64,000 bases of DNA from Giardia intestinalis. Its lineage: Eukaryota. Shown in pieces: positions 1 to 17,864 of the stretch (positions are counted from its first letter, which is position 1; every line of letters starts with the position of its first letter). Both the position numbers and the translations under genes were made by a program. The notes under the pieces were generated by a model. It saw only the letters and a program-made list of their open reading frames with translations, was not told where the DNA came from and made no database searches. The stretch lies in NCBI GenBank assembly GCA_000002435.2, contig CM018793.1; one strand, given 5' to 3'.

Positions 1-70
1 GTGACTAGTAGGTATGAGAGAATCAGGGTGGATCTAGTCAAGGAAGAGCGAGGAGATGCTATCAGAGGGA
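1..70. repeat. Left arm of a perfect 70-bp inverted repeat flanking the VSP gene. It starts at window base 1 and may extend upstream.
   Basis: Reverse complement of 1765-1834 equals 1-70 base for base (checked in 10-mers); the match breaks at 71 / 1764. Confidence 0.9.
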
Positions 71-412
71 ACGCAGGGAGACGTTAAACTGACGATCCTT
101 AAGTGAGCGAGAGGCCGAGCTTGACACCACACAAACAGATAGAATCTTTGGAATGCACGTAGAAATGAGACAGCCTGTCTCTCCGGACGGGGATACAATG
201 TGCTGGGATTGCAGCGATGGACTGCCATACAGGTTCCTCCGTCATGAAGGGTTATAAAGGAGCGCTGGCGTGGCAAGCGACACTACTACTGGATGGAGTG
301 CGCTGGAAGATCCTAGAAAGGATCCTTGCGGGCTAATTGGCTGTTAAACATTCTTCTCCTGACGTCTCATATTACTGAGTGAAACCACAAGCAACACGTG
401 AGTCGAGCACCA

Positions 413-1525
413 ATGTTACTACCAGCTCTCTGCTTTTTGATGAGCGGCCTCGCCGCGCAACGCACTAAACAACCCACGTCCGGCTGCCAGGTCGACAACT
501 GCGAGCGGTGCGTCCCCAGCGACGAAACAAAGTGCGAGGCGTGTAACTCTGGCTTCGACCTCGACGAAAACACAAAGCAGTGCAACCCAGCGCCGGCCGA
601 GTGCCCGATCGTGAACTGCCAGACGTGCTCCCAGGACAAGCAGACTTGCGTGGCATGTGAACCAGGCAAGCATCTGACCCCGACGAAGAAGGCATGCTTA
701 GATGCCTGCCCTGTCGGAACGTATCTATCCGGACAAACGTGCGCGCCCTGCGACCCCTCCTGTGCGGAGTGCAGCGGGGCCGGCGCTTCCAAGTGCACGG
801 CCTGTCCCGCCGGGAAGATGCTGAGGTACACCGACGAGACCAAGCTTAATGAGGGCGGCCAGTGCGTGGAGCAATGTGTGGAGGGCCCGGAGTGCGAGAC
901 GTGCGGCCTAACAATTGGAGGTACCAAGTACTGCTCGAAGTGCAAGGGGAGCAACGTGCCGCTCAATGGCGTCTGCACAAGCAACGCGGCCAGGACTCAG
1001 TTCTGCACCACTGCCGCTGACGGTGCCTGCACGGCCTGCGCCGCCGGATACTTCATCCAGGAGGGCGGGTGCTACCAGACGACGAGGCTCCCCGGGAAGA
1101 GCATCTGCACGACTGACAATGGAGGGAAATGCCAAACGTGTGCTAACGGACAAACCCCAGACGGAGGGACTGGAGTGTGCCCGTTGTGCGACTCCACCTG
1201 CAAGACGTGCACAGCAGGACAGACACAGCAGTGTCAAACTTGCTTCTCTGGGTACTATAAGTCTGGAACAAAGTGTGTGAAGTGTGATGCTAGTGACGGC
1301 CAAATTACTGGCGTAACCGATTGCGTGAGTTGTGCTCCACCATCTGGTGATAGCGGTTCTGTCACTTGCTATGTGAAGATGGATGGCAGCAGTGGAGGGA
1401 ATAGCACGAACAAGAGCGGGCTCTCCACGGGGGCCATAGCTGGTATCGCCGTGGCTGCTGTCATAGTTGTTGGTGGTCTCGTCGGCTTCCTCTGCTGGTG
1501 GTTCATCTGTAGAGGAAAAGCATAG
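413..1525 (+). CDS. Variant-specific surface protein (VSP).
   Basis: The ORF-track start at 398 is GTG; the first ATG is at 413 and gives the signal peptide MLLPALCFLMSGLAAQ. There are many CXXC motifs and a GGCY motif. The C-terminal hydrophobic anchor AIAGIAVAAVIVVGGLVGFLCWWFI is followed by the invariant Giardia VSP tail CRGKA and a stop. Confidence 0.93.
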   Translation: MLLPALCFLMSGLAAQRTKQPTSGCQVDNCERCVPSDETKCEACNSGFDLDENTKQCNPAPAECPIVNCQTCSQDKQTCVACEPGKHLTPTKKACLDACPVGTYLSGQTCAPCDPSCAECSGAGASKCTACPAGKMLRYTDETKLNEGGQCVEQCVEGPECETCGLTIGGTKYCSKCKGSNVPLNGVCTSNAARTQFCTTAADGACTACAAGYFIQEGGCYQTTRLPGKSICTTDNGGKCQTCANGQTPDGGTGVCPLCDSTCKTCTAGQTQQCQTCFSGYYKSGTKCVKCDASDGQITGVTDCVSCAPPSGDSGSVTCYVKMDGSSGGNSTNKSGLSTGAIAGIAVAAVIVVGGLVGFLCWWFICRGKA

Positions 1526-1535
1526 ATACTTAGGT

Positions 1536-1542
1536 AGTAAAC
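1536..1542 (+). terminator. Putative Giardia-type polyadenylation signal (AGTAAAC) 11 nt after the VSP stop codon.
   Basis: The sequence agtaaac matches the Giardia AGTRAAY consensus and sits immediately 3' of the TAG at 1523-1525. Confidence 0.6.
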
Positions 1543-1764
1543 GCATCAACCATTCTATTAACAATTGTATGATCTCTGTAGCTATTGCTGAAGGTCTTTG
1601 AGGATGACCCTCTAGTGAAAGCTTAGACCGAGATAGAAGGTGAAAAGCAGGCTGACTTTTCATCAGGCGACACGACTCTGCTAATTCATTGTTTCGGCTA
1701 TCTACAGGTATATTTCGCAATTTAGATTCATGTCCCTGGCCTGTCTGACTCAGTATCTCCTTGC

Positions 1765-1834
1765 TCCCTCTGATAGCATCTCCTCGCTCTTCCTTGACTA
1801 GATCCACCCTGATTCTCTCATACCTACTAGTCAC
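1765..1834. repeat. Right arm of the 70-bp inverted repeat. It is followed by a nested palindrome, actagtcac (1826-1834), a 10-nt spacer, then gtgactagt (1845-1853).
   Basis: Direct comparison with 1-70. The terminal 9-mer of the repeat recurs in inverted orientation 10 nt outside the arm. Confidence 0.9.
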
Positions 1835-4800
1835 ATTCAGAACAGTGACTAGTCAGCAATTACGTCTGACTCTTATACCCTTCCTTATGAAGAGCACCAT
1901 GGCCTCCAGACCCGCTGGGAGGATGCTGGGCTCTCAGAAGAAGGGACCGAGCACTTGTATATCTTTCTTGGACGTTGGGCCTTGAGCATTTGCCATCCTT
2001 GGCTAAGGGCTCCACTGTGGTGTGACTGGATATACTCATGCTTATCTATGGCTGATCTCGCAATGATGGACCAGAGGCTATCCCTGAAGACCACAGCTCC
2101 ATATCCTTCATCAACCAAGTTACTTGAAGCAAAAAGATTAGCCTCATGTCGGCCATCCACGATCATACAAGCCCTGTAACATACGCACCGAGTACTTGTG
2201 CGCCCCTTGCGGTGTGTGGGCATTGTGCTGCAACATGGGAGAAGGCTGGGACCAGGCAGCCACTCATAGTGTGTCAATAAAGCACCAGCTGCTTCCAGAT
2301 TTGACAATGATAACAGCGAAGAGGTGCGTCCGGTGGCTGTCTGATTGGCCGTTCTTGGCTGCTGTGCCCACTATTGCCTTTACTTAGCTTTAGGCAGATG
2401 CACTAAACAGCTAGCTCCCGACTACCCGAGCAGGAAGTGATAAATAGGGCACACCTCTGAACGAGCACGTATCAGTACAGAATACTTTGTTTCCAGCTGG
2501 AGGTATCTTATATCGGGCGACGGGGCTGGTTGTGGTGCATCCCGCCACCAGATGGCTTCCGTCGGTTTCCCGTACGTCCCGTGCCAATCTGGGTCACCTG
2601 TACGCGCCCAGGATGAAGCTGTAATACTAACCAGATGGCCACAGCATCCTGTGCCCAGGTTACTAGACTTCGGAGCACACCTGCATGTCCGCGAGGTCTG
2701 CCGCATGTGCTTCCGCGGACGGTGTGTAACTAAGGTTAGCAAGGACTCAGCGCCCAGCAGAGGGGCCGGAGAGCGCATGAGGATCCGACTGGCCTGACAG
2801 GCAGTGCAGGCCCGTACTGTCTCTAGCAGTCAGCCTCCACCCTTCCTGTGTCTGGATGTAGCACCACAGGGTCCGTGTCCTGCTCGTTGAGTAAGAGGCC
2901 CTTAGAACGCATACAGTGCCAGGGCAGGTATTCTGTTGAGCCACGTAGAGATACTTGTAATGAGAGCATAACGCTTGATCTCTTTTCTTGTGGCATCCAA
3001 GATAGCTGGTGCGCGGCCAGCGGTGAGCAGAGAACTGGAAGGCATAGTCACGCGATCTAGCCACTCTCCGTACCCATGAATCGTGGTATTGTTTATCCAA
3101 ATTCTTGGCTAGTATGGCGCCCGTCGTAGGCAGTATTAGTATTGGACACAGGAAGCTTCAATAGCCGGCTCGCCACCGGATCGACGTAGGCTACAGAGGT
3201 GCCATTGATCAGCAGCCAAGAGAACTACTTGTTCCTGCTTTGTCATGTGTACATATAAATGAAGCTCCCGGCATGCAGTTCTATTGCTTCACGGAGAGCA
3301 GCGCATGATAAGGTACCAATAGAAGCAGGATCAGCCCTCAGAACACGCACGTCTCCGTCTTCATCGAGACTCTCGCCATCAAGTTTTGATGGACTGCAGC
3401 GCATCCTAGCCCATAGCAGCACCTTCTGTGTAAGGATGGAGCCGCAGTAGAACAGCCCCGCGGAGCTCTCATGGCCGGCAGTCGACCGTGTCACTAGCTA
3501 CTACTTCCCAGACATGGCTAGCCTCCCATGCTGGCGTAACTGGCTATAGTATGTGATACACATCGTAGTAGTACCCCTTAATTGACTAAGCACGTGCCGG
3601 AGGGCTCCGCGGTGATCCCTCCTGAATCTAGCATTACCTTCTAGAAGCTATCCGTTCGACACACTGCAATCAGTGGGTGCAGAAAGGCAAGTGCTAGCAA
3701 GACAGCCTACAGGGCACTGGTTAGCATTCTGGGGGCTAGAAGCTACCTAACTGCCTTCGACCCAAACGCGACATCTCATCTATTCAAGAGACTGCGCGTG
3801 GTCCTTTGGTAAACGCTAATCCCCTAGATGCATGCTGCCTAGTCAGCTTATCGACCAAATTCCGTGTGCTGGTTGGCAGGGGTCGCATGTTGGTAGCTGT
3901 CCCCAGATGTTTGCCCTCGAGGACGACTCCAGCACTGCCTCGGGCGCGATCTTTTTCCTCGGCAAGAGACCGTTCCGCTTATCCCATTTCGATTGGTCAG
4001 CCCTTGTACACAGCCCCGGCGATAGACCAATTGTAACAAGCTAAATTTACAAGCTCAAGTCTTTTGTGCATTGCACAGCCCCACCGACCGCCAGTTCGGC
4101 CATCCTACGGCGGAAACTCCTTAACTCGTTCCGAATTAGGAAGAGAAGCGCCGTCAGGCCCCGCCAGTACTGCGATCGGAGACGTCGTGGGAACACGGGG
4201 TGCCGAACTTTCCCAGCGCGCCTGCTGCCCACCTTCGCCGAGTTCGTTGGGAGCGCAGGCAGGCTTGAAGGGCGGCGAGTGCGCAGGTGGGTATATCGCC
4301 GAGGCGAGGTATGGGGCTCCTTCGACGCCTATACCAGCTGGCTAGCAAGTCACCTCAATATAAAGAAAGACCTTCAGGTAACCCTTACTTCGAAGGAGCT
4401 CCTCTGCTATAGGCATCTGTGAAAGCGTCCGCTGTGGCGCGTCTGCAAGATATGGAATGGAGTAACAGGGTGCTTGAAACAGTTTGCAGTCTTCAGAATA
4501 GCCTACTTGCGTGCCAATGCAACACCGCGGAGCAACGTGCATGGGTCTCAGCGGTGTGCGTCACTCACGTTGGAAGGGTGTGCGGCCGCATGCTTGATGT
4601 GGCACGGCTGTAATCCGCAAGGAGCGCTCCCTGGTTCTTTCTCGAAGTAATTGGAGGTACAAGAACAGCCATATCACGGATGTACAAACCACCCACCAAT
4701 AGGCACGTGTGATGCTAGCGAGACACTCCTTAAAGGATTGCTGATCCATAGCGGTTACTTTTAGGCGAGCCCGAGGTACTGCCTTCTTGCTCGGAGAAGC

Positions 4801-5963
4801 ACATGTGATAGCGGTCCAGGTTGTTTGCAAAGATCTGTGATCTAGGGGCCGCGCTGTACGGGCAGGGTTAAGTACTTCTGCGCATATCTACGCGGTATCT
4901 GAAGACTCTTACAGATACGCATGAACTAGTTACTTGGCATATGCTAGTACGCATCACAGTAGGTGGAGAGCCGAGACGATACCTTTTGGGTACGTTCTTC
5001 TACGCATTTGACCACAGATCCTACTATGGCTGCGCCGAGACAGGGAACGCGTGTCTTGCAGAGAGGCCGTACATTATGGTTAAGCAGAACACCGAGATGC
5101 AGCTTCTATGGGTAGAAGTGCAAGGTGGCATGTGCTGTTGATTGGTGAGTCAGTGGCCAGCTTATCAGCGTCAGAATGCGGCCTTGGCTAACGTTAGGTA
5201 GATTAGCTCTCTCTGCAGAGGGTTGTAGAGCTCAGACAGGCCCATAGCAAGCAGAAATCAGGGCACGCAATGTGTGAAGGTACTTAGCCATTAATCCTAG
5301 ACTGTGTGTACAAAAACGCGTCGTTGCTGCCTTGTATCAAGCAGAAGGATATAAGCACCAGTGTGTACACGTTTCTTGCTATCAACTTTCTTGCATAAGC
5401 CCCGCAGTCCATGCAAGAAAGCAAAACAGCGCACTACACGACCTAGCACTACGACTTGTAGGGTTCTCTGTGCTGCGCAAGTATACAGGACAAGTGCAGC
5501 CCGGCTCTTCCTTAGAACAAGAGCTGTATCCCGATGTGATCCTCAGCTGCACGATAGTAGGGAAGGATGCGTCGGCCTTCTAGGGAAAGCCTATGGTCGC
5601 TGGAGCTGAGGACAAGGCAAGGCGATTCTGGTCTGGAGTAGTCTAGGTGGGCTCTACTGCAGCACAGATATGTTTCACGTGGTTTGCGAGATCACCGCAG
5701 TGAGTAGCTGTATAGAGCGTCAGATGAAGGCCGTCACGGAAGGATTGCAAAGGACGACTAGCAGAAAGCTGTAATGTTAGTAACCATTCTAATTGAAGAA
5801 GCCTGGCGTGCACAATCATTCAAGATAACAGATCAACGCCCTGCACAGCCTATGGCTCCCGAATGCCACACAACTTCTGGAAGGCCTTTGTGTCAGTACT
5901 GGTCGTCACGCTACCGTCCAGGGCCCACGCTTGTGCCTCTCCACTACCTGTTCTAAAAAACCA

Positions 5964-6665
5964 ATGCCCCCCGACGTGAAGCTTTCAGAAACCATGAAGA
6001 AGAACTATGCAGGACTACAGGAAACGGATCTCCGGAATGTCTACGTCGTCGTATGCATGCATTCGCTGAAGGCCCGGACACGTGGAATCACGGCCTCTGA
6101 GGTGAAGGACGTCCTGCAGAGGCGGGGCTACACCGCAGGAAACGTCGCCGACTCACTGAAGAAGCTCGAAACACGGCAGCTGATAGTCTCGGTACAGGAA
6201 AAGCAGGCGCGATACTATTTCCCAAAGGAGCTTTCCCGGGCCAGCGACGCCGTCTCCTCGTCCTTGGCCGGCCGGTTCAGCGATGACGAACTCTCCAAGC
6301 TGTCTGCCCTTGTGTACAAGGCGGTGGGACGCGCGCCTGTCGTCTTCGATGACATCTGCAAGGCCATTCAGAAGAACGAGGTCGGGACTCTAACACCTGA
6401 GGAGGTCCGGGTGATCGTGGGGGCCTTGATAGCAGATGGCGCTGTGGTGGAGATGCTCACAAACATGGGTCCGGCATATCGATCAGTCAACAGCGACTTC
6501 TACTCCTACTGCCCGAGCTACGACCAGGTGCCTGGACACCAGGGCATGCACGTGGCAGCAACCCCCTGCTGCAAGTGCCCTCACCTGTATGTTTGTGGCC
6601 CGGGGAGCGCCATCTCTCCCGAGCAATGTCTTTATATCAACCAGTGGCTGAGCGGGGCCGACTAG
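5964..6665 (+). CDS. RPC34: RNA polymerase III subunit RPC34/RPC6 (POLR3F-like).
   Basis: The ORF-track start at 5931 is TTG; the first ATG at 5964 is preceded by aaaaaacca. The C-terminal Cys cluster (PCCKCPHLYVCGPGSAISPEQCLYINQWL) closely parallels the RPC6 4Fe-4S tail (PCGLCPVF...ISPSNCIYMTEWL). Confidence 0.8.
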   Translation: MPPDVKLSETMKKNYAGLQETDLRNVYVVVCMHSLKARTRGITASEVKDVLQRRGYTAGNVADSLKKLETRQLIVSVQEKQARYYFPKELSRASDAVSSSLAGRFSDDELSKLSALVYKAVGRAPVVFDDICKAIQKNEVGTLTPEEVRVIVGALIADGAVVEMLTNMGPAYRSVNSDFYSYCPSYDQVPGHQGMHVAATPCCKCPHLYVCGPGSAISPEQCLYINQWLSGAD

Positions 6666-6779
6666 CCTGTGCTCTTTGGCTGTTCTTCCCGGCCGATTCC
6701 AGAGCCAGCCGCCGGCTCAGTCTCGGACCCGGCAGAAGGACGAGGCGCCGACTGCACGTCTGCATAGCATAGAGCTCCA

Positions 6780-7571
6780 TCACTAGCGAGTGTTTCAATA
6801 AGCTTTAACTTACTGAACCTTTGACTCTGTCTTTAGCGCTCTTGTGTAATTAAGACTTAGAAGGATACGTACTACCTTTAATACTAGATATTTAGAAAGG
6901 CTCAGCATATTTTAGATATGATTACTTTCACTCTCATTAAACCCAGGACTACGCTCATGGAACGTCTGAGCTTATATGCCTCCATATTTTGTAATATAAC
7001 TTAGATATTTATGAATCTTAATGTAAATATAATGTTTTGCTTAGGGCTTATCCATTTTTAATGTGTAGCAGCCTATTCAGGGTGGGCTGGCTTTAGCGTT
7101 AGCAATGAGCTCAATCATTACTGCTAAAACTTTTGCCATCGAGGAGAAGAGGGTGACTTTTTGGATTTTAAAAGCACTTATGAGCATTCTGTTAGAAACT
7201 TAACAGTAATTTATTTCCTGAGATTGATACTTCTGATTTTAAATCTGAATTTCCTTTACTAGTCTATTGCTTTCCCGTCAAAATGAGCTTAGTGATTTGC
7301 AAAATACGATAGTACTTCAATTTTAGAGTGGTCACTGTCAGAGTGATGCTTCACGTCTACGCCACTTCTTTGGAGCTTATACAGTGATGATTTTAGAGCT
7401 ACATTATCACCTTGCTCTCTATCCATGAACTGAAGGAAGGCATTCTACATCCTTGTTCTCATCCTAAGTGTTAGTGCAAGCATAATGGGGAATTAGAACT
7501 ACTCGCGAGACGGCATTGTCACACTAGTCTACTGAAGTTTCCTGGGGCACCGTAATTTAAAAATCACAACT
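6780..7571. other. AT-rich ORF-free spacer of about 800 bp upstream of the CCA-enzyme gene. It is unusually long for this gene-dense genome.
   Basis: Visibly low GC versus the flanking genes; no ORF of 60 aa or more in any frame; it ends in an A-rich run immediately before the ATG at 7572. Confidence 0.6.
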
Positions 7572-9182
7572 ATGGCTTCAGAGCCGTGTTCCAAGAGCCA
7601 ACAACTATCGACATCTATTCAAGTAACAGAAAGTGAGGCACGTCTTTTCAACACTCTTTTGGCTGCCATAGCCTCGGTCAATAAGCAAGATACTACACTG
7701 CGTGTGGCAGGGGGGTGGGTTCGTGACAAGCTACTCGGGTATGAATCTCATGACATAGACATAGCGGTAGATAACATGACGGGCGTTGAATTAGGTACGA
7801 TCATCAACGAGTACATAACATCTCAGGGAGAGACTGTGCACAAAATGGGGGTCGTAAGTCAAAACCCGGAGAAGTCTAAACATCTAGAAACAGCTTGTAT
7901 AACAGTGTGTGGTTATGACGTGGATTTGGTAAATCTACGTGCGGAGTCTTATCAGGAAACTAGCAGAGTCCCCAGTGCAATAAAGTTTGGGAGCCCCCAT
8001 GAAGATGCGTTGCGTAGAGACTTTACAGTCAATGCGCTGTTTTATAATATAAATACAAGAGAGATTGAAGATTTTACAGGCCAAGGGCTTGCAGATTTAA
8101 AAAGTAGATTGATTAGAACACCATTAGATTATAATATAACCTTTTATGACGATCCTCTCCGCATACTTAGAGCTATTCGTTTCTCGAAGAGGCTGGGTTT
8201 CGAGTTGGACAAAAAGATGTATCAGGCAGTAGAAAGTAAAGAGCTTACAGCAAGATTGCAGATAGTTTCTAGACAGCGATACAACAAGGAGCTTATAGAA
8301 ATCCTCTCAGGAGAGACTGCACTTTGTGGCCTTCGTGGTCTATTTAATATGCACATATTTGAGGAGATCTTTCTGTACATTCTAAACACTTCTATGAATA
8401 AAGAGCTGAATGTACACTCAATATATCAGAGAACAGTGGAAATCTGGGAAGAGTATTCTACTGCTGCGCAGAAGGTAAAAGAAAAGCTCTACATTGATGC
8501 TCTGAAGGTTAATTTAGACACACTCTACTACTTCATTTCACTACTTTCTATCGGGCTGGCTATTAACGAGGCGCTGCTTGACCAGGATGCTTCAACCTCC
8601 GCTGCAGACGTATCAATAGCTGTTAGGTTCCTTGATGAGCCGGTGAAGGGGAATCAGAGTTGTAAAACAATGCCCATCATGTGGTATGTAGCTAGAGTCT
8701 GCTGTGCTTCAACAAACACCGTTGCAGAGACGTTGTCGGATGCTCATATGTACAGGGCTTCTCTTGGATTAAAAGACCTAGCCCCTGAGGAACACATTCT
8801 ATTGTTCAGAGGATACAACAAACATGCTGTCCTTCTCTCTCTTTGTACACTGGCTCTTACCCCACACTTTGAAGATCTAGTAGTCACATACAGACTGGAC
8901 AAACCTGCACATCTTTTGGTCTTGCTAGATGCAAAGCTTAATGTGAATGTCCCACAGCTAGCACTCCTTTGTGATATCAAAGATAAGCGGAGGTTCCGAC
9001 GCGTAAAAGAGGCAGCAATCCTTTGTTATCTTTCAGACAGTGTTCTTCTAGAGTCTCTCAAAACACACAGTCTATTAAGGCCAGAATTCACATTCGAGTA
9101 CTGTAAGAACAAACTAGATGACATACTGAGGATCTTGCAAAACATGCAGAACGGTAGAGATGATGTGCCAATAGACAAATGA
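7572..9182 (+). CDS. tRNA nucleotidyltransferase (CCA-adding enzyme), class II poly(A) polymerase / CCA family.
   Basis: The motif GGWVRDKLLG, then the DIDIAVDNMTG Asp pair, RRDFTVNALFYN and a head domain of the expected length. ATG is at 7572 with an A-rich leader. Confidence 0.85.
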   Translation: MASEPCSKSQQLSTSIQVTESEARLFNTLLAAIASVNKQDTTLRVAGGWVRDKLLGYESHDIDIAVDNMTGVELGTIINEYITSQGETVHKMGVVSQNPEKSKHLETACITVCGYDVDLVNLRAESYQETSRVPSAIKFGSPHEDALRRDFTVNALFYNINTREIEDFTGQGLADLKSRLIRTPLDYNITFYDDPLRILRAIRFSKRLGFELDKKMYQAVESKELTARLQIVSRQRYNKELIEILSGETALCGLRGLFNMHIFEEIFLYILNTSMNKELNVHSIYQRTVEIWEEYSTAAQKVKEKLYIDALKVNLDTLYYFISLLSIGLAINEALLDQDASTSAADVSIAVRFLDEPVKGNQSCKTMPIMWYVARVCCASTNTVAETLSDAHMYRASLGLKDLAPEEHILLFRGYNKHAVLLSLCTLALTPHFEDLVVTYRLDKPAHLLVLLDAKLNVNVPQLALLCDIKDKRRFRRVKEAAILCYLSDSVLLESLKTHSLLRPEFTFEYCKNKLDDILRILQNMQNGRDDVPIDK

Positions 9183-9254
9183 ATGGTGAGCGAGCTTACT
9201 AGATAATGTAGAGTAAGTAGCCGCTTTTATCGGTGCAACTTGTAATATGATAGA

Positions 9255-11225
9255 TTAATATGGGATATTTAGAATGTTTGCAAGGCGAATCATGGCGTCT
9301 TTTCCACCTTGAGCTATATGATAGAACTGAGGTGAGCCTATACGAGAAGTGGTCCGCGCACGCTTTCTTTCAGGGTTGATTCTGAATAGACTACACGGAA
9401 TGTCGCTCTTAGCGCATCGTCTGAGAATACTGTTGAACTCGTGGCGAATAGTTGGTATGCGAACTCCGCAACCTATTTCAAGTAGACAGACCTTTCTATT
9501 TTTATTTCTAAACAATTGTCTTTTGAACGAGTTGTACTTTTCTTCTTCGTCAGTGAGTTCCATGAACATTGCATCATCAAACATAAGTACTCTGGGGCGA
9601 AGATAGTACTTACAGTGCGGACAGATTGGATGTCCATCGTTATTTTGTGATGCAATCGGTCTTACTGACTCATATATCTTCTTGTAATTAGATTCGATAT
9701 GGATTGGGTCATGCACTGCAACACATCCACGTTCGCCCTTATTCATTGAAGATGCACTAGGGGGTGACAAAGTATCCTTGCTCATTGGCAATGACTCTTC
9801 CTCTACGCGTATCTCTTTAGTGGTATCGTCAGTCACACTCAGAGACTGAGCTGGGCGTTCTACTGCATCGCATACTTTGGGGGCACTCTTTGCTGAGTGT
9901 GCACCCTCTTGGTTCAGTACGGGAGTGCTTGTTGTAGTAGAAGTAGAAAGTGATGATAGGCTGCACACCCTTTTGGCCTCGTGCCTTATTGCTAAGTAGT
10001 CTATTCCCTGCTTAGCTAGTGCATCGTGTAGAGCGCCCCTTGTCTGTGAATTACGACTACATTGGGAATACACTCTGTCATACACCTCTCTTCTAACCAT
10101 GGGAGACCCCCTTTTAGTATCCACTTGCACTGGTGGATTGGTAGTGTTCAGAGGAGCCACTGGCCTGACTACAGAGGCTTCCTGCACAGGTGATAGAGGA
10201 ACTACTTGAGAGCAGCTAGACGAATCTTGCACCGCGTTATCTCCATAGTATGAGAAATACAGTTGAGAAAACACTGATGTATTCTTACCAGGCTTTGTAA
10301 ATCTCGATAGAATAGGAGGTGGCCTGGGAATAGCGACTGATGTGGTAGACGTAGTAGATGAATACCCGGGTCCGCTCCTGATAGCATGTACAGTGCTGCC
10401 AGTAGAACAGCGCATTGTTTGCTTGTTAATATTAAATCTATAATAGAACGGAAGCCGATAGATTGAATCTATTCTACACGACCGGGAGCATTGCCAGTCC
10501 ATGCATGTTCCGTGAAACTCATAAAAGTGCTGCCTTGACACCCCGATTTTTTCAAAATGAGAATCTACGTTACTCGAATAGATGTAAATGTGCTTGTTAG
10601 GATATGCTGCTATCATGTTCTTAATAATTGTGTACCCCTCGTGAGGTGTAGTGTCTCTGTAGGAGTTAAAGCAATATCCCCAAAAACCGTAGAACACCTC
10701 TGGGTTTCTCTGAAGCCAGATGGGGTCACAGAGGGTAGCATAGTCAACCCCCATAAGGTCATAGGCAGGTACCCTTGCAATATCCTTGTATACCGCTAGG
10801 CCAGAGTCTGCTGAAAACCCTGCCCCAGTCCCTATAAGGATATAATTGGCCTCTTTGATAGTTTGAGCCAGGGTAGTGATAGCCGCCTCATCTCGGTCAA
10901 TTTGAGTGTCGTCACAAAGAGCAGCACCCGAAGAGGCAGGTGTTTCCGAGGGAGCTGTGGTTGGGCGCAGGTCACTCTCATTGGGCTTGGTTTTCCGTAG
11001 GCTGGACTGTGACTGTGATTTACCTAATGTCCGCACTTTAGGCCCTCCTTTAGATAAGGGTGTTTGAGCAGCGGGCCGAGAAGTTGGTGCTGTTGATGAT
11101 TGGGCTGGATGGTTCCGGCACGCTGTTGTGTTAGGTCTTCGTTTCTCAGCTGGCGCAGTTCTTACAGAAGGCTGAGCTGACAGCTTAGGAGTTGTTGCAG
11201 CAGCTAAGCGCTCATACACATTCAT
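9255..11225 (-). CDS. Sir2-family NAD-dependent deacetylase (sirtuin) with a Ser/Thr/Pro-rich N-terminus and a long low-complexity insertion.
   Basis: GTGAGFSADSG matches the GAGIS motif and SSNVDSHF matches TQNIDxL. The sequence EFHGTCMDWQC and later CPHCKYYLRPRVLMFDD form the Zn Cys pairs and the RPxVVFFGE-like motif. CLLEIGCGVRIPT is the final strand. ATG is confirmed at 11223-11225 on the minus strand. Confidence 0.65.
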   Translation of the reverse strand: MNVYERLAAATTPKLSAQPSVRTAPAEKRRPNTTACRNHPAQSSTAPTSRPAAQTPLSKGGPKVRTLGKSQSQSSLRKTKPNESDLRPTTAPSETPASSGAALCDDTQIDRDEAAITTLAQTIKEANYILIGTGAGFSADSGLAVYKDIARVPAYDLMGVDYATLCDPIWLQRNPEVFYGFWGYCFNSYRDTTPHEGYTIIKNMIAAYPNKHIYIYSSNVDSHFEKIGVSRQHFYEFHGTCMDWQCSRSCRIDSIYRLPFYYRFNINKQTMRCSTGSTVHAIRSGPGYSSTTSTTSVAIPRPPPILSRFTKPGKNTSVFSQLYFSYYGDNAVQDSSSCSQVVPLSPVQEASVVRPVAPLNTTNPPVQVDTKRGSPMVRREVYDRVYSQCSRNSQTRGALHDALAKQGIDYLAIRHEAKRVCSLSSLSTSTTTSTPVLNQEGAHSAKSAPKVCDAVERPAQSLSVTDDTTKEIRVEEESLPMSKDTLSPPSASSMNKGERGCVAVHDPIHIESNYKKIYESVRPIASQNNDGHPICPHCKYYLRPRVLMFDDAMFMELTDEEEKYNSFKRQLFRNKNRKVCLLEIGCGVRIPTIRHEFNSILRRCAKSDIPCSLFRINPERKRARTTSRIGSPQFYHIAQGGKDAMIRLANILNIPY

Positions 11226-11346
11226 GTATTATCGAAATTCAGGTCCCTAGAACGACAGAACACTGAAGGAGCGTCGAAGAAAGACTGCAAGCAAAAATTT
11301 ACCGAAGATTTACTAAAGAATAACTCTAGTTCTGCAGGAGAACGAC

Positions 11347-12048
11347 ATGTCTCAGCCTATGAATGCAAACCTGATGGATGTTGTGCAGAAGTTCAAGACC
11401 TACGAAGAGTACTTGGACTCTCATATTAAGAGTGATGCATTGTTCTTTTTGGAGAGCCAGGAAATCGCGCGGGCCATAGTCGAGACTTCCTCGCTTCGTA
11501 ATGAGATACTCAAGCGAGACGAGTTTGAGGCGGCGAAAAAGGAAATTTCAACCACAAAGCTCAAGGGGACGTCTTTCATGAATAGTCAGCTCGCATCAAC
11601 GGGCCTCAATCTTAGCGAATATCCATTTCTCTTTGCACTTGCTCAAAGGGAGGAACAAGTTAGAGATGGGCGACTTGCTTGTATCATTTTCATTCGAGAC
11701 AGAAATCACTCGGGGCAAGAAATTTCGGGATACATAGATTACGCTCATCGATTGAAGACAGACAACTTTGTAGCATACTTCACGCGAGCAAAGAAGCTTC
11801 TCCCTCGATCTACAGACCTCAGTTTTTACAATTGGGATACGCAGTTTGTGTCCTCACTGGCAAGTAACACATTTGAGATTATCGCCGACAACGAAGAGGG
11901 CTTCTTGTTCAAGTGTAAAAGAGATAGAAAGGTAATAAATGTCAATCCTACGGCCGTCAATGACGACAAAACCGTACGCCACGTCATCGACACCCACGAA
12001 TACATGCACGTAGTCATATACGATCACATACTCCGCAGGAAAATTTGA
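11347..12048 (+). CDS. Conserved hypothetical protein of 233 aa, tentatively a CFAP299/DUF4464-like cilia-associated protein.
   Basis: Clean 233-aa ORF with ATG at 11347. The N-terminal KFKTYEEYLDSHI and the overall length recall the DUF4464 family; the family assignment is from memory and not verified. Confidence 0.4.
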   Translation: MSQPMNANLMDVVQKFKTYEEYLDSHIKSDALFFLESQEIARAIVETSSLRNEILKRDEFEAAKKEISTTKLKGTSFMNSQLASTGLNLSEYPFLFALAQREEQVRDGRLACIIFIRDRNHSGQEISGYIDYAHRLKTDNFVAYFTRAKKLLPRSTDLSFYNWDTQFVSSLASNTFEIIADNEEGFLFKCKRDRKVINVNPTAVNDDKTVRHVIDTHEYMHVVIYDHILRRKI

Positions 12049-12084
12049 CACAGAGGTGCTGAGTAAGCAACCGGCGCAGAGCGT

Positions 12085-12657
12085 TTACATGAATATGAAC
12101 TCAGTATCCCTCTCCGTTAGAGCCTTGTAGACCGCTGAATATGTTTTGGTACGCTCGCTAACCTCGTTGTATACAGCCTTCGGGAGCACAACCTGGAGCC
12201 TCGGGTTAGAGCCCGCAGGGTAAAGGGTGCGCTTTCCAATGACATGGATCGGGTAGCAGATGTCGTCCAGGATGCAGTTGTAAACAGATGTCATGGTACG
12301 CGACCTCGGACGCCTTATGCTCTTCTTACCGGTGAATACGTACGCATTCTTCATTATCGTTCTGTTAGCCACTATAATGAAGCGGTGTCCCGAGTGGTTC
12401 TTCTCTAACTTAAGGATGAGAGCCTCCGAGTTTTTCTGGAAGCTCTGCAGCATAGGATAGGGGACATAGACCACCGCAGCCTTCTTGTCTCCGTCGACTG
12501 CTATCTCTTTGACAGAGCTAATATACAGGGTCCCCAGGCCCATCTCCCTCAAATCTGGATCGTCCTCCAATTTCAAGAGAGTACCGGCCACCTGCTTCTC
12601 AAGCTCAGATAGCTTCTCGAAGGGCTTCCTGATCTTGCGCTGCGCGGGGAAGGTCAT
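12085..12657 (-). CDS. RPS7: 40S ribosomal protein S7e.
   Basis: The ORF-track start at 12690 is TTG; the first ATG gives MTFPAQRKIRKP. KKAAVVYVPYPMLQSFQK aligns with RPS7 RKAIIIFVPVPQLKSFQK. RRPRSRTMTSVYNCILDDICYPIHVIGKR aligns with [29 protein letters not shown]. Confidence 0.88.
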   Translation of the reverse strand: MTFPAQRKIRKPFEKLSELEKQVAGTLLKLEDDPDLREMGLGTLYISSVKEIAVDGDKKAAVVYVPYPMLQSFQKNSEALILKLEKNHSGHRFIIVANRTIMKNAYVFTGKKSIRRPRSRTMTSVYNCILDDICYPIHVIGKRTLYPAGSNPRLQVVLPKAVYNEVSERTKTYSAVYKALTERDTEFIFM

Positions 12658-12826
12658 CGAGGGAATTGATCTGGTTAAATGAAAATTCAAATTAAAATTA
12701 TTTGTGGAAACTGGCTAGGTCACCATTCACTTTTCATTGCTAATTTTCACTGCTTCGTTTAGTTAATAATTCAACTCCTTGCGACATATCCTCTTGCAAG
12801 TCGGCTGAAAACCAACTTCAAAAAGG

Positions 12827-14710
12827 ATGGAGATCACCTACGTGTACACCAAGCTCCGCAAGGATTTCGGGCGCTACGTTTCCTACAAGCGCGTCGATGC
12901 TGAAGTTCTCCTGGATTATACCCCAAACGCAGACGACACCAAGGATCTGTGGACTGAGGAGCAGTACGCTGAAAAGGCCGTCCAATCTGGTGAAGATTTT
13001 TCTGAGCACACCGTCAATACCCACAGGATAACAGTTGACACACGCGGAGTTCAACACAAGCAAGGCGGCTGGCCCAGGGAGATAGACCCAACAGATGCAG
13101 AGCACACCACGCGCTACCGCAAAAAGGTGGAACGTGACCCTGGCTATGCAGTCTCGATTAAAGCGTGTGTGGATAAGCTCGAGGATGCAACCCTTTTGAA
13201 CAATGCTATGGACTTGACAGAAAGATACTTCAGTGATACTGCGGAGAGCTCTCTTCTTTTGCACGCGCAGCCACCCACAGTGAAAGTCATTTCCATATTC
13301 AGGGATCCAGCCAGCATTAAGCGCACTGCTCGCCGAGTACTTTGGGCTCCTGAGACATCTAAGCTCCCTAAGAAATTCGTCACCGCATTTTGCAACATGA
13401 CTTACCAGTACGACATCAATCTCAACCGGGCGCTAGCAAAAACGAGCTCCCTAGCCGACACCGAGCTTTACCGGGACCCGACAGAAACAGGTCTGACTAT
13501 CACAGGAGGAGAGCCCAACATAATTGGTTCATTCAACTTGCAGAACTCATCGTCGTACATCTACGATGTTAATAATAGCAACGCGCCTGACTTCGAGCTC
13601 ATAGCACCAAATAGTAGCAGTAATGCAGCTATCACGTCTCTCCGGTACTCTACCAAAGACGCAAACATCCTCTTCGCTGGGTTATACAACGGCCAGGTGG
13701 GCTTTTATGATTGTAGGAAGTCGCACCACATCGTCGATACATCACCGGTGGAAATTAGCCACAAGGACTCTGTCTATGATCTATATGTTGTCAAGAGCAA
13801 GTCTAGCACAGAGTTTGCGTCCATATCAACGGACGGAAGGGTGCTCTGGTGGGATGCCCGTAACTTCAGCAAGTATACGCAGGAGCCTGTGGAGCTATTC
13901 ATTACAAGTGACGATGGGTTTTCGGGTGAGAAGTCCAAGTCCAGACCAGACACGAAAAACTCTACGGGCAGAAGCGCAGGAGAAGCAGAATTCTTGATAG
14001 GCGGGACGTGCTTAAACATAGACCCTGTTGCCGGCCTTTCCAAATTCCTTGTGGGGTCTGAAGCCGGGCACATAATTCACTGTAATAGAAAGAACAAGCC
14101 TTCGGAACGTGTAACTCAGGTTCTGATTGGCCACAATGGGCCCGTCCACTGTATCAACCGATCTCCATTCTTTGGCAAGTTCTTTATCAGCTGTGCAGAC
14201 TGGTCGTGCAAGATATGGGCAGATGATATAAGGACCCCCATCCTTACGACGGCGTACTCGCCTGGTTCGGTAAATGCATGTTGCTTCAGCAACACACGCC
14301 CGGGAGTCTTCGCAACTGCCCGCTCAGATGGTTATTTAGATATCTATGATCTCTTCTACAAGGTCGACACCCCTACTTTATCTTGTAACGTCGGCAACGC
14401 GAGCCTTTGCTCCTTGGAGATTGATCCTACAGGTGAGTTCCTGCTTCTGGGGGCTAATGATGGTGCAGTTAACTTGCTACAGATGTCCTCTGGACTGCAC
14501 ACCTCGACAAATATGGTCTTAGAAAAACAGTTTATTCAGAACCTTTTCGAGCGAGAGTCCAAGCGCGAGAAGGCGCTGGAGCAGAGGACTAAAGAGATGA
14601 AGCTGAAGAGCGCGGACAATGCACCAAAGGGCCCGAGAGACATTGACATTGTGATTGACCCCGATCTCTTGGCAAACATTGAAGACGAGTATGGCAACTT
14701 TACATTTTAA
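12827..14710 (+). CDS. DNAI2: Axonemal outer-arm dynein intermediate chain 2 (DNAI2/IC69-like), a WD-repeat protein.
   Basis: The N-terminus MEITYVYTKLRKDFGR matches DNAI2 MEIVYVYVKKRSEFG. WD repeats follow. ATG at 12827 is preceded by aaaagg. Confidence 0.8.
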   Translation: MEITYVYTKLRKDFGRYVSYKRVDAEVLLDYTPNADDTKDLWTEEQYAEKAVQSGEDFSEHTVNTHRITVDTRGVQHKQGGWPREIDPTDAEHTTRYRKKVERDPGYAVSIKACVDKLEDATLLNNAMDLTERYFSDTAESSLLLHAQPPTVKVISIFRDPASIKRTARRVLWAPETSKLPKKFVTAFCNMTYQYDINLNRALAKTSSLADTELYRDPTETGLTITGGEPNIIGSFNLQNSSSYIYDVNNSNAPDFELIAPNSSSNAAITSLRYSTKDANILFAGLYNGQVGFYDCRKSHHIVDTSPVEISHKDSVYDLYVVKSKSSTEFASISTDGRVLWWDARNFSKYTQEPVELFITSDDGFSGEKSKSRPDTKNSTGRSAGEAEFLIGGTCLNIDPVAGLSKFLVGSEAGHIIHCNRKNKPSERVTQVLIGHNGPVHCINRSPFFGKFFISCADWSCKIWADDIRTPILTTAYSPGSVNACCFSNTRPGVFATARSDGYLDIYDLFYKVDTPTLSCNVGNASLCSLEIDPTGEFLLLGANDGAVNLLQMSSGLHTSTNMVLEKQFIQNLFERESKREKALEQRTKEMKLKSADNAPKGPRDIDIVIDPDLLANIEDEYGNFTF

Positions 14711-14786
14711 CTATCCAGCACACTCTGCAGGCAAACGTGTCACGTTGACCTGGCGCTTTGGCTGTTTGAGGCGGGCTAGTAAATAA

Positions 14787-17051
14787 ATGCACTTGTGCAG
14801 TTGGGAACGCCATGCAGAGCTCCATCCTTATTCTTGGTATTTTGAGGCACCACAGGATGTCCTCGATGGCTATGGGCTTCAGCATGGTAATATTGTTCGT
14901 ATCTTGCTTGATGGTACGTGCTACATGTGCATAACCTATAGACGGGATAGGCCGAAGGTTACAATAGGCGGATGCATTACTCTGTTAGAGGACCCCGTAG
15001 TAGACAACCTTCATGAGTCCAATGGGCAGACCTCTGAAATTAATGTGGAAAAACTTTCCTCTGGTCTTATCTTTAAGTCGGAGTTAGACTCCATAACAAT
15101 CTGTCTTCCATCGGCATTTCGCCACACAGCAATAAAGAAAGAAGCCATCAGTATCATTAAAACGGTGATGCATGGAGCTCCGTATCTTCACAACACTTGG
15201 ATGGGTATCTGCCTCGTCATGGTTAAAATGAGGATAAGAGTAACTCACACGGAAGAAAGTACTCAGACTGAACTAGATGGTAATCACACAACAAATGTTA
15301 GACTTCCTCCCGTATCAGAATCTCAATGTTCGTGGATAGGGTGTACAGCTATTAGAGACAGGCTTAGCTATTGCCTATCGTCCCCCTCTGTTTCTCATTT
15401 TCTTATCTCTGGCCCCAGAGGAAGTGGAAAAATGACACTACTTAAAACCTGTTTACACAGATTGGAAAAGTTTAACAGCCTCATAGTGTCCGCCAATGAT
15501 CTTCTTGAAGGGAAGAATCTGTGGAAGGAGTATACCAGCGATAGCATTCTATCACCTGATAGCTCTACGACCTCTAATCGCATCCTGTCTCAAGTCACGG
15601 AAGGATGTATCCGCGATTTCTTTTCTAGCTATAACGACTTTCTCCGTATCTTAGCTGTGTCATGTCATGAGCAAGTGGACTTTTCGTTGCTCTCCAAAAA
15701 GTGGGAGGCGACACAAGGACGAGCCAATCTATCTTCATCGTTAATTAATATAATAGTTAGAGCCGATGCCTACGACTTTCTCATCTTTAGGGAATTCGAC
15801 TCAGTATTTGTCCAGCGGTCTGACTTGGCATCCCCAGAGCAACGTCAACTAACTAGTACTCTTTTGATGCTATTAGACGGGGGGACAAAACGTTCTGTCG
15901 GTGCACAAGGCCGGTGCAAGTATATTGGAATAGTCACCGATCTGGCCACTGTAGATGCAGCACTAAGGAGGCCTGGACGCTTTGAAGAGGCAGTCACCCT
16001 CACAAATCCAACATTTGAAATGCGAAGCCAGTTCTTGCAGAAGGTCTTTGCAGACCGTGGCAACACCTTAGATAGCTCAGTAGTAGAATCGTTGACGAAG
16101 GCTACGGCAAGTATGCCACTAGGCGACATCAAAGAGCTGCTCACTATGTGTGGTGCTGGTGATCAGGTGCACCTAGTTAAAGCCGTGCAGCAGCACGTAC
16201 AGGAGTTTAGAGGACGAAACACTCTAGAATTGTCAGGTGAACTATCGTCTTGTAGGGTTCCTGATCCCAGCCCCTTCGAGCCCTTTGAGGTAGTCTCTGT
16301 ACATGAGGATGTCTTGAGCAAATTAACTGACATCATACTAATGCCTGTATTGTACAAGGACTTATTCTGGAAACTGATGAGGAGCAGATCTTCCGGTAAT
16401 ATCTTGTGCATGGGGTGTGCAGGCTCAGGTAAGACATTTTTAATTCGTAGATTGATTAGGCAACTTTCAGGCCGTATAAACTTTTTTGAACTCAATTGTG
16501 CACAGGTGTTTTCGCTATACGTTGGGCATACGGAGAAGAACATTAGAAAAGCATTTCAAGAGGCCCGGAGCAACATGCCGTCGGTTCTCATTTTGGACAA
16601 CTATGACTCTTTGGCTGGAAATCGTGATTCAGGGGATACCTCTGGTGACTCCGTGGCGTCTAGAGTGTTAGCTACCTTGCTGGTGGAATTGGATGGGCTC
16701 TCGACGGGAAGCTTCGGCCAGGTTACTGTCCTCGCTATAACGAGCCGTCCAGACTGTATTGACCGGGCTTTAATTAGGCCTGGTAGAGCTGACCACAAGA
16801 TACTCATAGGACATCTTCCTAAAGAAACTATCATGGAAGAAAAGATGTGGACGGAGATTGAAAGGCTTTACAATCTAACATTCGCAGATGTGAGTGCAAT
16901 AAAGGAATGCATAAGAAACGGCTATGACCGCGGACTCTGTATCACCGTTGGATCTATTATTAGAAAGAGCCGGCTCCTGGCTTCTAAGGCTGTCTCCCTG
17001 GAGCAGGCACTAGACGACCTAACTAAAGCTATGGTTGTGGCAGACTCATAA
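14787..17051 (+). CDS. AAA+ ATPase with two ATPase modules, divergent (NVL/SPATA5/PEX-like class).
   Basis: Walker A motifs are GPRGSGKMT and GCAGSGKTF. The Walker B-like sequence ILDNYDSLAG and the second-region homology segment RPGRADHKILIGHLP are present. ATG at 14787 sits after taaataa. Confidence 0.55.
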   Translation: MHLCSWERHAELHPYSWYFEAPQDVLDGYGLQHGNIVRILLDGTCYMCITYRRDRPKVTIGGCITLLEDPVVDNLHESNGQTSEINVEKLSSGLIFKSELDSITICLPSAFRHTAIKKEAISIIKTVMHGAPYLHNTWMGICLVMVKMRIRVTHTEESTQTELDGNHTTNVRLPPVSESQCSWIGCTAIRDRLSYCLSSPSVSHFLISGPRGSGKMTLLKTCLHRLEKFNSLIVSANDLLEGKNLWKEYTSDSILSPDSSTTSNRILSQVTEGCIRDFFSSYNDFLRILAVSCHEQVDFSLLSKKWEATQGRANLSSSLINIIVRADAYDFLIFREFDSVFVQRSDLASPEQRQLTSTLLMLLDGGTKRSVGAQGRCKYIGIVTDLATVDAALRRPGRFEEAVTLTNPTFEMRSQFLQKVFADRGNTLDSSVVESLTKATASMPLGDIKELLTMCGAGDQVHLVKAVQQHVQEFRGRNTLELSGELSSCRVPDPSPFEPFEVVSVHEDVLSKLTDIILMPVLYKDLFWKLMRSRSSGNILCMGCAGSGKTFLIRRLIRQLSGRINFFELNCAQVFSLYVGHTEKNIRKAFQEARSNMPSVLILDNYDSLAGNRDSGDTSGDSVASRVLATLLVELDGLSTGSFGQVTVLAITSRPDCIDRALIRPGRADHKILIGHLPKETIMEEKMWTEIERLYNLTFADVSAIKECIRNGYDRGLCITVGSIIRKSRLLASKAVSLEQALDDLTKAMVVADS

Positions 17052-17136
17052 CAATTTCGGTGTCCTTGCAGATGCCCTGGTTGCTATTGAATATTGGACA
17101 CTTGGCATCGGGAAAGAGCTGAATCAAAAATCCAGG

Positions 17137-17646: not shown

Positions 17647-17864
17647 ATGAAGACGAGGCTGTGTGTGGCCATACGGTATCTCACCCATAGAGTGTGCCGT
17701 AAGGCATTCGACAGTCTACCTATTGTTGTAGCTTACTCAGTGGGCACTCTTGTTTTTTCCTCGTGCTTTATGAGCTTCTTTAGCTTTTATTCCCCTTGGT
17801 TGAACACTTCTGCTGTTCCTTTAATTAAAATTCAACTGGTCCTCAAGGTTTAGCACAGAGAGTG

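Follow-up and report, generated by a model that had tools for sequence, protein, structure and literature searches.

The window analysed here, 64,000 nucleotides of contig CM018793.1 of Giardia intestinalis WB, opens with a VSP gene, which is followed by about 4.1 kb lacking a credible ORF, by the gene for RNA polymerase III subunit C34 (RPC34) and by a poly(A) polymerase gene (Table 1). The two immediate neighbours named in a preliminary description of this DNA were confirmed, the VSP by its CRGKA tail and RPC34 by its PF05158 domain. The VSP protein is identical to KAE8305908.1 / XP_001707499.1, annotated as 'VSP' in Giardia intestinalis WB, and the RPC34 protein is identical to KAE8305907.1, KAE8305909.1, XP_001705025.1 and XP_001707501.1.

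Table 1. Features at the start of the window
Feature	Position	Strand	Remarks
Inner tip of left arm	1..81		inverted repeat, cut by window start
Unique palindrome centre with VSP	82..1755		between inverted-repeat copies
VSP gene	413-1525	+	ORF with CRGKA tail
Right arm, roughly 5 kb	1756..6734		holds ORF-free stretch, 5S gene and RPC34
ORF-free stretch	1860..5960		non-coding apart from 5S gene
AT-rich 'TATA-like' box	4035..4050	+	AACAAGCTAAATTTAC, upstream of 5S gene
5S rRNA gene	4092..4211	+	Rfam RF00001; mature RNA about 4093-4209, 117 nt
Segment repeated at third locus	5440..6424	+	RPC34 upstream region and 5' two thirds of RPC34
RPC34, right-arm copy	5964..6665	+	RNA polymerase III subunit C34; PF05158
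AT-rich unique spacer beyond arm	6735..7571		GC 0.35
Poly(A) polymerase	7572-9182	+	3' of AT-rich spacer

The ORF listing bore out the gene-less interval at the coordinates first given for it. The four longest start-to-stop ORFs within 1860-5930 measure 140, 118, 118 and 117 aa, and the longest stop-to-stop frame in 1860-5960 has 161 codons. In shuffled sequence the maximum frame was 134 +/- 23 codons, and 14% of shuffles reached at least 161 codons. Given that this maximum is what shuffles give, the stretch behaves as non-coding DNA. Its GC of 0.50-0.57 is coding-like, as had been stated, in contrast to the 0.35 of the AT-rich spacer at 6750-7500; such a value is unusual for intergenic DNA of Giardia. 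Spacers elsewhere had been described as tens to a few hundred bp, which was somewhat overstated. When gaps were measured between ORFs of at least 150 aa in the rest of the window, long ones were found at 6665-7572, 25540-26480, 46748-47836 and 57998-59570, reaching 0.9-1.6 kb. Nevertheless, the 4.1-kb stretch is an outlier, being 2.6 times the next largest gap (1.6 kb) and about nine times the mean of 477 bp published for intergenic regions (PMC7000408). No tandem repeats, tRNAs or dispersed repeats were found in the window.

The ORF-free stretch was found to contain a 5S rRNA gene, which the earlier ORF-based reading had missed. The gene matches RF00001 over model positions 1-120 of 120, without truncation, at 86.2 bits against a gathering score of 38 (E 7e-18). 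Both published Giardia 5S RT-PCR primers have exact sites, at 4096-4118 and 4169-4191 (amplicon of 96 nt), and the copy lacks the 15-nt insert, matching the expressed 117-nt form (Feng et al. 2012, PMC3369914). The same authors reported the consensus AAYAHRCWRWATKWAY for an upstream AT-rich box at -58..-43. It has a single match in the 64-kb window, where 0.01 is expected, and this match sits at -58..-43 from base 4093, the same place as published; it is not independent evidence, because the consensus came from WB 5S genes, probably including the present copy. As the internal control region is missing from Giardia 5S genes according to the literature, the gene is presumably transcribed by Pol III from this upstream box. 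One of the 118-aa ORFs overlaps the 5S gene; neither it nor the VSP had an exact match in the contig index, which appears to lack the source WB assembly, and a 43-nt Giardia 5S pattern had none among JGI metagenome contigs.

Dispersed 5S genes, internal on the chromosomes, have been reported in WB, eight in the 2007 assembly and ten in the 2020 assembly (PMC3369914; PMC7000408). The gene described here shares with them the full-length RF00001 match, the primer sites, the 117-nt form and the position of the box, and is likewise non-tandem, unlinked to the rDNA unit and chromosome-internal. The gene itself is no different from these; its assemblage E orthologue has decayed. Its setting, a 4-kb gene-less arm of an inverted duplication, is not described in either paper. 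The structured-RNA locus that the preliminary description had listed among its alternatives therefore stands in a narrow sense, with a 120-nt gene that covers only 3% of the stretch.

With regard to the inverted repeat said to flank the VSP, the repeat is real and perfect over 70 nt (1-70 / 1765-1834), and at 96% identity it reaches 81 nt (1-81 / 1756-1834). However, it is only the inner tip of a larger inverted duplication that includes the ORF-free stretch, and its true length is not visible in the window because the repeat begins at window base 1. The outer boundary of the arm is given by Logan contigs. Ten of them (L001-L010) are identical to window 5528-6734 and then carry a WD40 gene in place of the window sequence, and two others (L011/L012) begin at 6705, with a 30-nt k-1 overlap with the arm end at 6734. 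The end of contig L021 of isolate DH corresponds to window 1946-6740 at 98.8% identity, again with the WD40 gene next to it. Past 6734, about 35 nt show a weak similarity between the arms that is not convincing. In WB, the VSP KAE8305908 lies between two identical RPC34 proteins, KAE8305907 and KAE8305909, the accession order being RPC34, VSP, RPC34, poly(A) polymerase. This order, together with the repeat cut by the window start, indicates that 1756-6734 is the right arm of a large palindrome.

The block 1756-6734 is accordingly one arm of a VSP-centred inverted duplication, as observed at its inner tip, at its outer boundary and in the other arm in DH. We infer the full extent of the left arm in WB, most of which lies outside the window; WB would then probably carry the 5S gene and RPC34 twice at the VSP locus, as mirrored copies. 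All WB-like Logan contigs break at 5528, which is unexplained by a simple two-arm model. In P15 (assemblage E) a left arm was not found: a NEK kinase lies left of the VSP, with no long inverted repeat. The arm runs 69 nt past the RPC34 stop in assemblage A and 221 nt in assemblage B, and because this outer boundary differs, a single ancient palindrome is not proven.

The orthologous regions of other isolates carry the stretch as a conserved, syntenic spacer, an outcome that the preliminary description had named as refuting its reading. In DH (A2), 4795 nt of contig L021 match at 98.8% identity with a single gap, beside a second RPC34 copy on the other arm. In P15, contig L025 carries a VSP, then 4485 bp with no gene annotated, then RPC34 and poly(A) polymerase, and aligns to window 1403-6735. 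Identity to P15 is 69-77% along the whole ORF-free stretch, 87% in the right gene-bearing flank and 93-98% in the RPC34 coding sequence. The stretch diverges between assemblages A and E at about the rate of other intergenic DNA. It had been proposed as a possible insertion relative to an ancestral state with RPC34 adjacent; its orthologous place in P15 shows it to be an old spacer in syntenic position, not an insertion. Both assemblages have kept the spacer in place, whereas the 5S copy of E has decayed. The DH orthologue of the gene (L021 2146-2265) scores 88.3 bits, in contrast to the degenerate P15 orthologue (L025 8000-8128), which scores 54.3 bits and has a 9-nt insertion. In DH the AT-rich box is shortened by a 1-nt deletion, and P15 no longer has it. 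Position 4139 is G in the WB copy and A in DH and P15, a difference by which this copy could be told apart.

Part of the arm recurs at a third locus, with the order VSP, truncated RPC34, kinase. Copies of 5440-6424 were found there in DH (L017 1429-2413, 98% identity) and in P15 (L026 5752-6771, 84%), and these copies are homogenised within each lineage. The same two RPC34 contexts occur in assemblage B, with an identical protein in both, and the order RPC34 then poly(A) polymerase is common to P15, assemblage B and one further divergent lineage. That the RPC34 copies at two or three loci are identical within a lineage points to gene conversion, by which we infer that the arms are kept alike. 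An ENA contig (L031) with a related VSP proved to be a paralogue with no flank homology.

Taken together, we consider it likely that the feature is a non-coding spacer of WB which makes up most of one arm of a VSP-centred inverted duplication and in which a dispersed 5S gene is the sole recognisable gene. The spacer, the 5S gene and RPC34 would form the arm, with the VSP at the centre, and the two arms would be homogenised by gene conversion. The feature is of a known kind and largely ordinary. In WB, inverted pairs of identical VSP genes, head-to-head or tail-to-tail, occur with 2-4 kb of non-coding DNA between them (Adam et al. 2010, PMC2996952). Those pairs and the present locus have in common a VSP-linked inverted duplication with near-identical arms that diverge abruptly, the inclusion of kilobases of non-coding DNA, and contigs that end prematurely. 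In contrast to the pairs, there is here a single VSP in a unique centre, and the arms of about 5 kb hold non-coding DNA, the 5S gene and RPC34. The locus was therefore not counted as such a pair, having one VSP only, although it works alike.

In a compact protist genome, a gene desert may thus call for no new element to explain it: the RNA gene was invisible to an ORF-based reading, and the repeat was hidden by the window boundary. Of the roughly ten 5S genes, one and probably also its mirrored copy lie in a palindrome beside a VSP and the gene of a Pol III subunit. These points are modest and would alter current understanding only if transcription of the arms, or VSP rearrangement mediated by them, came to light.

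The leading idea of the preliminary description was decayed coding sequence, that is, a former VSP, cysteine-rich or other lost gene that has drifted past recognition. We regard this as unlikely. Apart from the coding-like GC, it is favoured by a modest deficit of stop trinucleotides, which number 323 on both strands against 373 +/- 12 in dinucleotide shuffles (13% fewer; z about -3.4 to -3.8) and remain deficient with block shuffles, and by nine frames of at least 100 codons where 3.3 are expected (p about 0.007). This deficit and the excess of long frames may be a weak vestige of earlier coding sequence. The same stop deficit is seen in a second ORF-free stretch (58000-59570, GC about 0.5), which adjoins a cysteine-rich protein gene. 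The codon log-likelihood is slightly positive at 1860-2310 and 5310-5610, and negative in 23 of the 26 sub-windows of the stretch.

Nevertheless, no positive support came from domains, homologues, periodicity or frames. A six-frame Pfam scan of the stretch at E<=1 gave no match, including to RT, endonuclease and VSP (PF03302) domains, nor did the longest WB and P15 ORFs match Pfam. Stop-to-stop frames were joined end to end, once with a minimum of 50 aa (4029 aa in total) and once with a minimum of 100 aa (967 aa), and neither query found a match among 5.8 billion proteins; these negatives are soft in that the word-index search missed a 71-aa ORF recovered by exhaustive phmmer. This ORF call (P0032), which comes from the same locus of another isolate, was the match of the 161-codon frame; a further match of that query, to a repetitive 858-aa protein (P0033, E 5e-4), was judged to be due to chance. 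The homology check proposed in the preliminary description, carried out as these Pfam and protein searches, thus returned no RT, endonuclease or coding match. The 3-base periodicity is 1.3 in the stretch, compared with 9-22 in genes. Against the P15 orthologue no frame is preferred, stops are present in P15, and the ORF translations are 35-65% identical, under the nucleotide identity of 70-80%. The Giardia intron branch/3' splice-site motif has no match in the stretch, so that conserved frame, 3-base periodicity and Giardia intron signals, the marks of an intact or intron-containing protein gene, are all absent. Any decay would be older than the split of assemblages A and E.

A graveyard of VSP genes, also suggested earlier, finds no echo in the stretch either. 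In addition to the missing PF03302 match, CXXC occurs 7 times against 11.7 in shuffles, and neither a GGCY motif nor a CRGKA tail was found. A single CRGKR, ascribed to chance, is not followed by a stop. On domain, CXXC, GGCY and CRGKA alike, the stretch qualifies neither as a VSP gene nor as a VSP pseudogene.

A more far-reaching version of the inverted duplication is also conceivable, in which an old, gene-converted palindrome present in assemblages A and B would group two genes related to Pol III, those for 5S rRNA and RPC34, about a VSP that can be replaced, and the gene-less arms would be functional. We think this improbable. If true, the arms could act as a recombination substrate for flipping or exchanging the central VSP, give rise to long hairpin or antisense RNA that silences VSP genes, or form a Pol III-bound chromatin boundary.

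Still less probable is that the stretch regulates the adjacent VSP, as a long non-coding RNA locus or otherwise, for example by giving rise to antisense or double-stranded RNA or by serving as a boundary element. Its length of 4.1-4.5 kb is retained beside the VSP in A1, A2 and E, and inverted arms around a VSP could yield convergent or hairpin transcripts. Some sub-regions (2950-3150, 5050-5200 and 5450-5600) are better conserved in P15, at 0.83-0.87, and the strongest fold (z -3.0) lies at 5450-5599. However, overall identity to P15, about 0.7-0.8, is like that of AT-rich spacer, and the RNAfold z-scores (mean 0.0, sd 0.97) are distributed as in random sequence, showing no excess folding, with the lowest score at about the expected minimum for 172 tests. 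Small ncRNA genes of Giardia bear a conserved 12-nt 3' processing motif, HCMTTYHHTHAA (Hudson et al. 2012, PMC3510501). The stretch resembles them in its intergenic location, but the motif has no match on either strand of 1860-5960, the nearest being at 1550-1561, just past the VSP stop, and Rfam detected no sno/snRNA in the stretch. Outside the 5S gene, the remaining roughly 4 kb show no coding or structured-RNA signal.

Giardia has the non-LTR retrotransposons GilM, GilT and the dead GilD, the last being non-functional, ORF-poor DNA of kilobase size. That a dead GilD-like element, or any other mobile insertion, separates the VSP from RPC34 here is very improbable and already largely refuted. 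The likeness to GilD ends with kilobase-size, ORF-poor DNA. Unlike these elements, the stretch is syntenic across assemblages, since P15 has it in the orthologous position and DH in the other arm, and it has no RT or endonuclease remnant, no [YF]xDD (YxDD) motif in any frame, no homopolymer run, poly(A) or other, of 7 nt or longer, no repeats, and no extra copies in the window or in 232 kb of Giardia loci beyond the orthologous positions. In DH contig L017 only 139 bp separate a related VSP from the homologue of window position 5440, an arrangement that by itself resembles a 3.9-kb insertion in WB. As an empty site L017 was rejected: it is the separate, partially duplicated third locus, present also in P15 (L026).

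An assembly artefact, in which a mis-joined or error-rich long-read consensus would have broken real ORFs, has next to no credibility: assemblies often fail in palindromes, and short-read contigs do break at 5528 and 6734, but independent assemblies refute it over 1946-6960, given the single gap in DH, the collinearity of P15 and the presence of both RPC34-segment junctions in short-read contigs. Over 4183-6960 the identity of the Illumina-based Logan contigs L022-L024 is 99.2-100%, L024 matching 5528-6960 at 100%, and L012 matches window 6705-19182 at 100%.

This analysis revealed that the stretch between the VSP surface-antigen gene and the gene for RNA polymerase III subunit C34 (RPC34) is a real, unusually long and conserved non-coding region, which constitutes the main part of one arm in an inverted duplication centred on the VSP. 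Judging from sequence, its sole functional element appears to be a 5S rRNA gene of a known type. The feature is known in kind; its location in a palindrome and the concerted evolution seen among RPC34 copies are new but minor details. Three flanking proteins were matched, by exact-sequence look-up, to entries of Giardia intestinalis WB (ATCC 50803).

Coordinates of features (window positions unless a contig is named)
Feature	Position	Strand	Detail
Inverted repeat, perfect	1-70 / 1765-1834
Inverted repeat, 96%	1-81 / 1756-1834
VSP	413-1525	+	KAE8305908.1, exact protein match
Right arm	1756-6734
ORF-free stretch	1860-5960
AT-rich box	4035-4050
5S rRNA gene	4092-4211	+	full length
RPC34	5964-6665	+	KAE8305907.1 and KAE8305909.1, plus two more accessions in older assembly; exact protein match
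AT-rich spacer, RPC34 to poly(A) polymerase	6735-7571		840 bp, GC 0.35
Poly(A) polymerase	7572-9182	+	KAE8305910.1, exact protein match
Third-locus copy of 5440-6424	DH L017 1429-2413; P15 L026 5752-6771
HCMTTYHHTHAA match	1550-1561	+
HCMTTYHHTHAA match	17817-17828	+
HCMTTYHHTHAA match	47661-47672	-
Long ORF	30697-32034	-
Long ORF	31986-36770	+
Cysteine-rich membrane protein gene	55560-57998	-	812 aa
Second ORF-free stretch	58000-59570		1.57 kb, GC about 0.5

The lack of a credible ORF noted in the preliminary description was confirmed: the top start-to-stop ORFs comprise 140, 118, 118 and 117 aa, and the longest stop-to-stop frame has 161 codons, a length reached in 14% of dinucleotide shuffles (longest frame 134 +/- 23 codons). 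The GC content, described as coding-like, is indeed 0.50-0.57, which resembles the adjacent genes and is high for Giardia intergenic DNA, compared with 0.35 in the AT-rich spacer at 6750-7500. When gaps are measured between neighbouring ORFs of at least 150 aa, the stretch is the biggest, exceeding the next 2.6-fold, although other gaps reach 0.9-1.6 kb and packing is thus looser than had been stated. The mean intergenic length published for the WB genome is 477 bp (PMC7000408).

On contig L025 of the assemblage E isolate P15, 4485 bp that lack gene annotation separate a VSP, preceded by a NEK kinase gene, from RPC34, which is followed by poly(A) polymerase, SIR2 and further genes. The contig aligns over the full length of window 1403-6735 at 69-77% identity, compared with 86.6% in the right gene-bearing flank (6743-16471) and 93-98% in the RPC34 coding sequence. 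Given that the AT-rich spacer to the right of the stretch is 70-86% identical between WB and P15, the stretch evolves as ordinary intergenic DNA does. No sharply conserved island was found in it between these isolates, the 5S region itself reaching just 0.84-0.87. In the A2 isolate DH, the end of contig L021 is 98.8% identical to window 1946-6740, with one gap; beyond this match comes a WD40 gene instead of poly(A) polymerase. WB and DH differ by 1.8% at 1946-4091, 0.7% at 4212-5963 and 0.4% in the RPC34 coding sequence. As the P15 and DH alignments reveal the same sequence, a conserved spacer, in the orthologous regions, they settle the matter against an insertion.

Of the readings proposed earlier, a structured-RNA locus holds for the 120-nt 5S gene only. 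This is the sole Rfam RNA gene in the whole window (86.2 bits, gathering score 38). Both published RT-PCR primers for expressed Giardia 5S RNA match it exactly, 96 nt apart, and it is the normal 117-nt form, without the 15-nt insert that one copy has (PMC3369914). An AT-rich box has been reported at -58 to -43 of WB 5S genes (PMC3369914); its single match in the 64-kb window (0.01 expected) has the correct spacing from base 4093, which makes it a check of consistency rather than independent proof, since the consensus was built from WB genes. The gene agrees with published descriptions of dispersed Giardia 5S genes, which lie internally on chromosomes (8 in the old assembly, 10 in the new); both the class and its scattered arrangement were already known. 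DH possesses an intact 5S gene (88 bits). The P15 orthologue (L025 8000-8128) is degenerate (54 bits), with a 9-nt insertion, many substitutions and loss of the upstream box, and this copy appears to be dispensable in at least one lineage. At base 4139, the WB copy carries G instead of the A of DH and P15 (TAGGAAG versus TAAGAAG), with an Rfam score 2 bits lower; this G could tag transcripts of the WB copy.

For the remainder of the stretch, RNAfold z-scores on both strands averaged 0.0 (sd 0.97), the lowest, -3.0, being about chance level for 172 tests. No tRNA, tandem repeat, dispersed repeat or Giardia ncRNA 3' processing motif (PMC3510501) was found there. The window as a whole contains 10 instances of this motif, HCMTTYHHTHAA, where 3.1 would be expected; two are intergenic and might mark unannotated sno/snRNA-type genes, and one lies 25 nt past the VSP stop codon.

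The reading favoured in the preliminary description, decayed coding sequence, is in its general, very old form improbable. Counted over both strands, stop trinucleotides fall 13% short of dinucleotide shuffles (z -3.8; block shuffles -3.4), which is compatible with decay and also fits a composition-linked trinucleotide bias; there are 9 frames of 100 codons or more, where 3.3 would be expected. AT-rich spacers do not show the deficit. Of 26 sub-windows, 23 have a negative codon log-likelihood under a model trained on genes of the window, 3-base periodicity is 1.3 versus 9-22 in genes, and the Giardia intron motif is absent from the stretch. Translated WB ORFs are 35-65% identical to P15, less than at the nucleotide level; their P15 homologues carry stops, and all frames behave alike. 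Pfam searches returned no family in all six frames of the stretch (E<=1) and no match for the longest frames of WB and its P15 orthologue. Concatenated frames likewise gave no match in two word-index protein searches, negatives that are soft, as phmmer showed: run exhaustively on the 161-codon frame, it retrieved just a 71-aa ORF called at this locus in a different isolate and one more match, to a repetitive protein, which was dismissed as chance. A VSP graveyard is not supported, as GGCY and CRGKA motifs are absent and there are 7 CXXC motifs where 11.7 would be expected, and neither is a dead retroelement, given the empty six-frame Pfam search and the absence of YxDD; homopolymer runs are likewise absent from the stretch. 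The second ORF-free stretch, upstream of the cysteine-rich membrane protein gene, has a like stop-trinucleotide deficit (z -2.65).

The inverted repeat described as flanking the VSP is real, but its apparent extent is an edge effect: it begins at window base 1, is therefore cut by the window edge, and constitutes the inner tip of ~5-kb arms with the 5S gene and RPC34. Ten short-read contigs (L001-L010), all encoding the exact RPC34 protein, are identical to window 5528-6734, beyond which they carry WD40, TPR and PFK genes. Two others (L011, L012) match the window at 100% and 99.98% identity from 6705 on, starting exactly 30 nt (k-1) ahead of this divergence point, and L024 keeps to the window path over 5528-6960 at 100% identity. 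In the WB annotation, accession numbers run in the order RPC34, VSP, RPC34, poly(A) polymerase, which places the VSP between two identical RPC34 genes. Taken together, the inverted repeat, the short-read contigs, the DH contig and the accession order point to a locus in which a unique 1.7-kb segment holding the VSP would form the centre. To its left would lie the WD40 gene, followed by RPC34 and a 5S-bearing spacer, both in inverted orientation; to its right lie the spacer and its 5S gene, then RPC34, then poly(A) polymerase. The right-arm RPC34 occupies the ancestral position, since its order with poly(A) polymerase is common to P15, assemblage B and one further divergent lineage. The locus resembles reported inverted identical VSP pairs with 2-4 kb of non-coding DNA between them (PMC2996952), but is not a member of that group. 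WB-like short-read contigs with RPC34 (L001-L010, L024) all begin at 5528, whereas A2-like L021-L023 run through; this branch point may reflect the edge of another copy or an arm-to-arm difference.

In assemblage B, an identical RPC34 protein again occurs in both contexts, and the shared arm sequence extends 221 nt beyond the RPC34 stop and, on the other side, at least 774 nt ahead of the ATG. As RPC34 is ~81% identical between assemblages A and B whereas the two B contexts, from different isolates, are ~99% alike, sequence comparison suggests that the arms were homogenised by gene conversion. Arms may instead have arisen independently or been lost, because the outer boundaries differ (A +69 nt, B +221 nt) and the left arm is absent from the P15 contig. 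A third locus in DH and P15 copies the RPC34 upstream region and the 5' two thirds of the gene, and holds a VSP, the truncated RPC34, a 230-250-aa ORF, a 2294-aa kinase gene and a CLAMP-domain gene. In each assemblage, every lineage-specific change in the main copy recurs in this third-locus copy, among them a 37-nt insertion in P15; this implies gene conversion between the third and main loci. Interpretation of the third locus as an empty site without the 3.9 kb was rejected, as it is a separate locus.

Counterparts of the AT-rich spacer in divergent lineages contain small called ORFs (210 aa in L019; 97 and 84 aa in L027), and the breaks of many short-read contigs fall at 7200-7222. Elsewhere in the window, the two opposite-strand long ORFs overlap at their 5' ends by about 50 nt.
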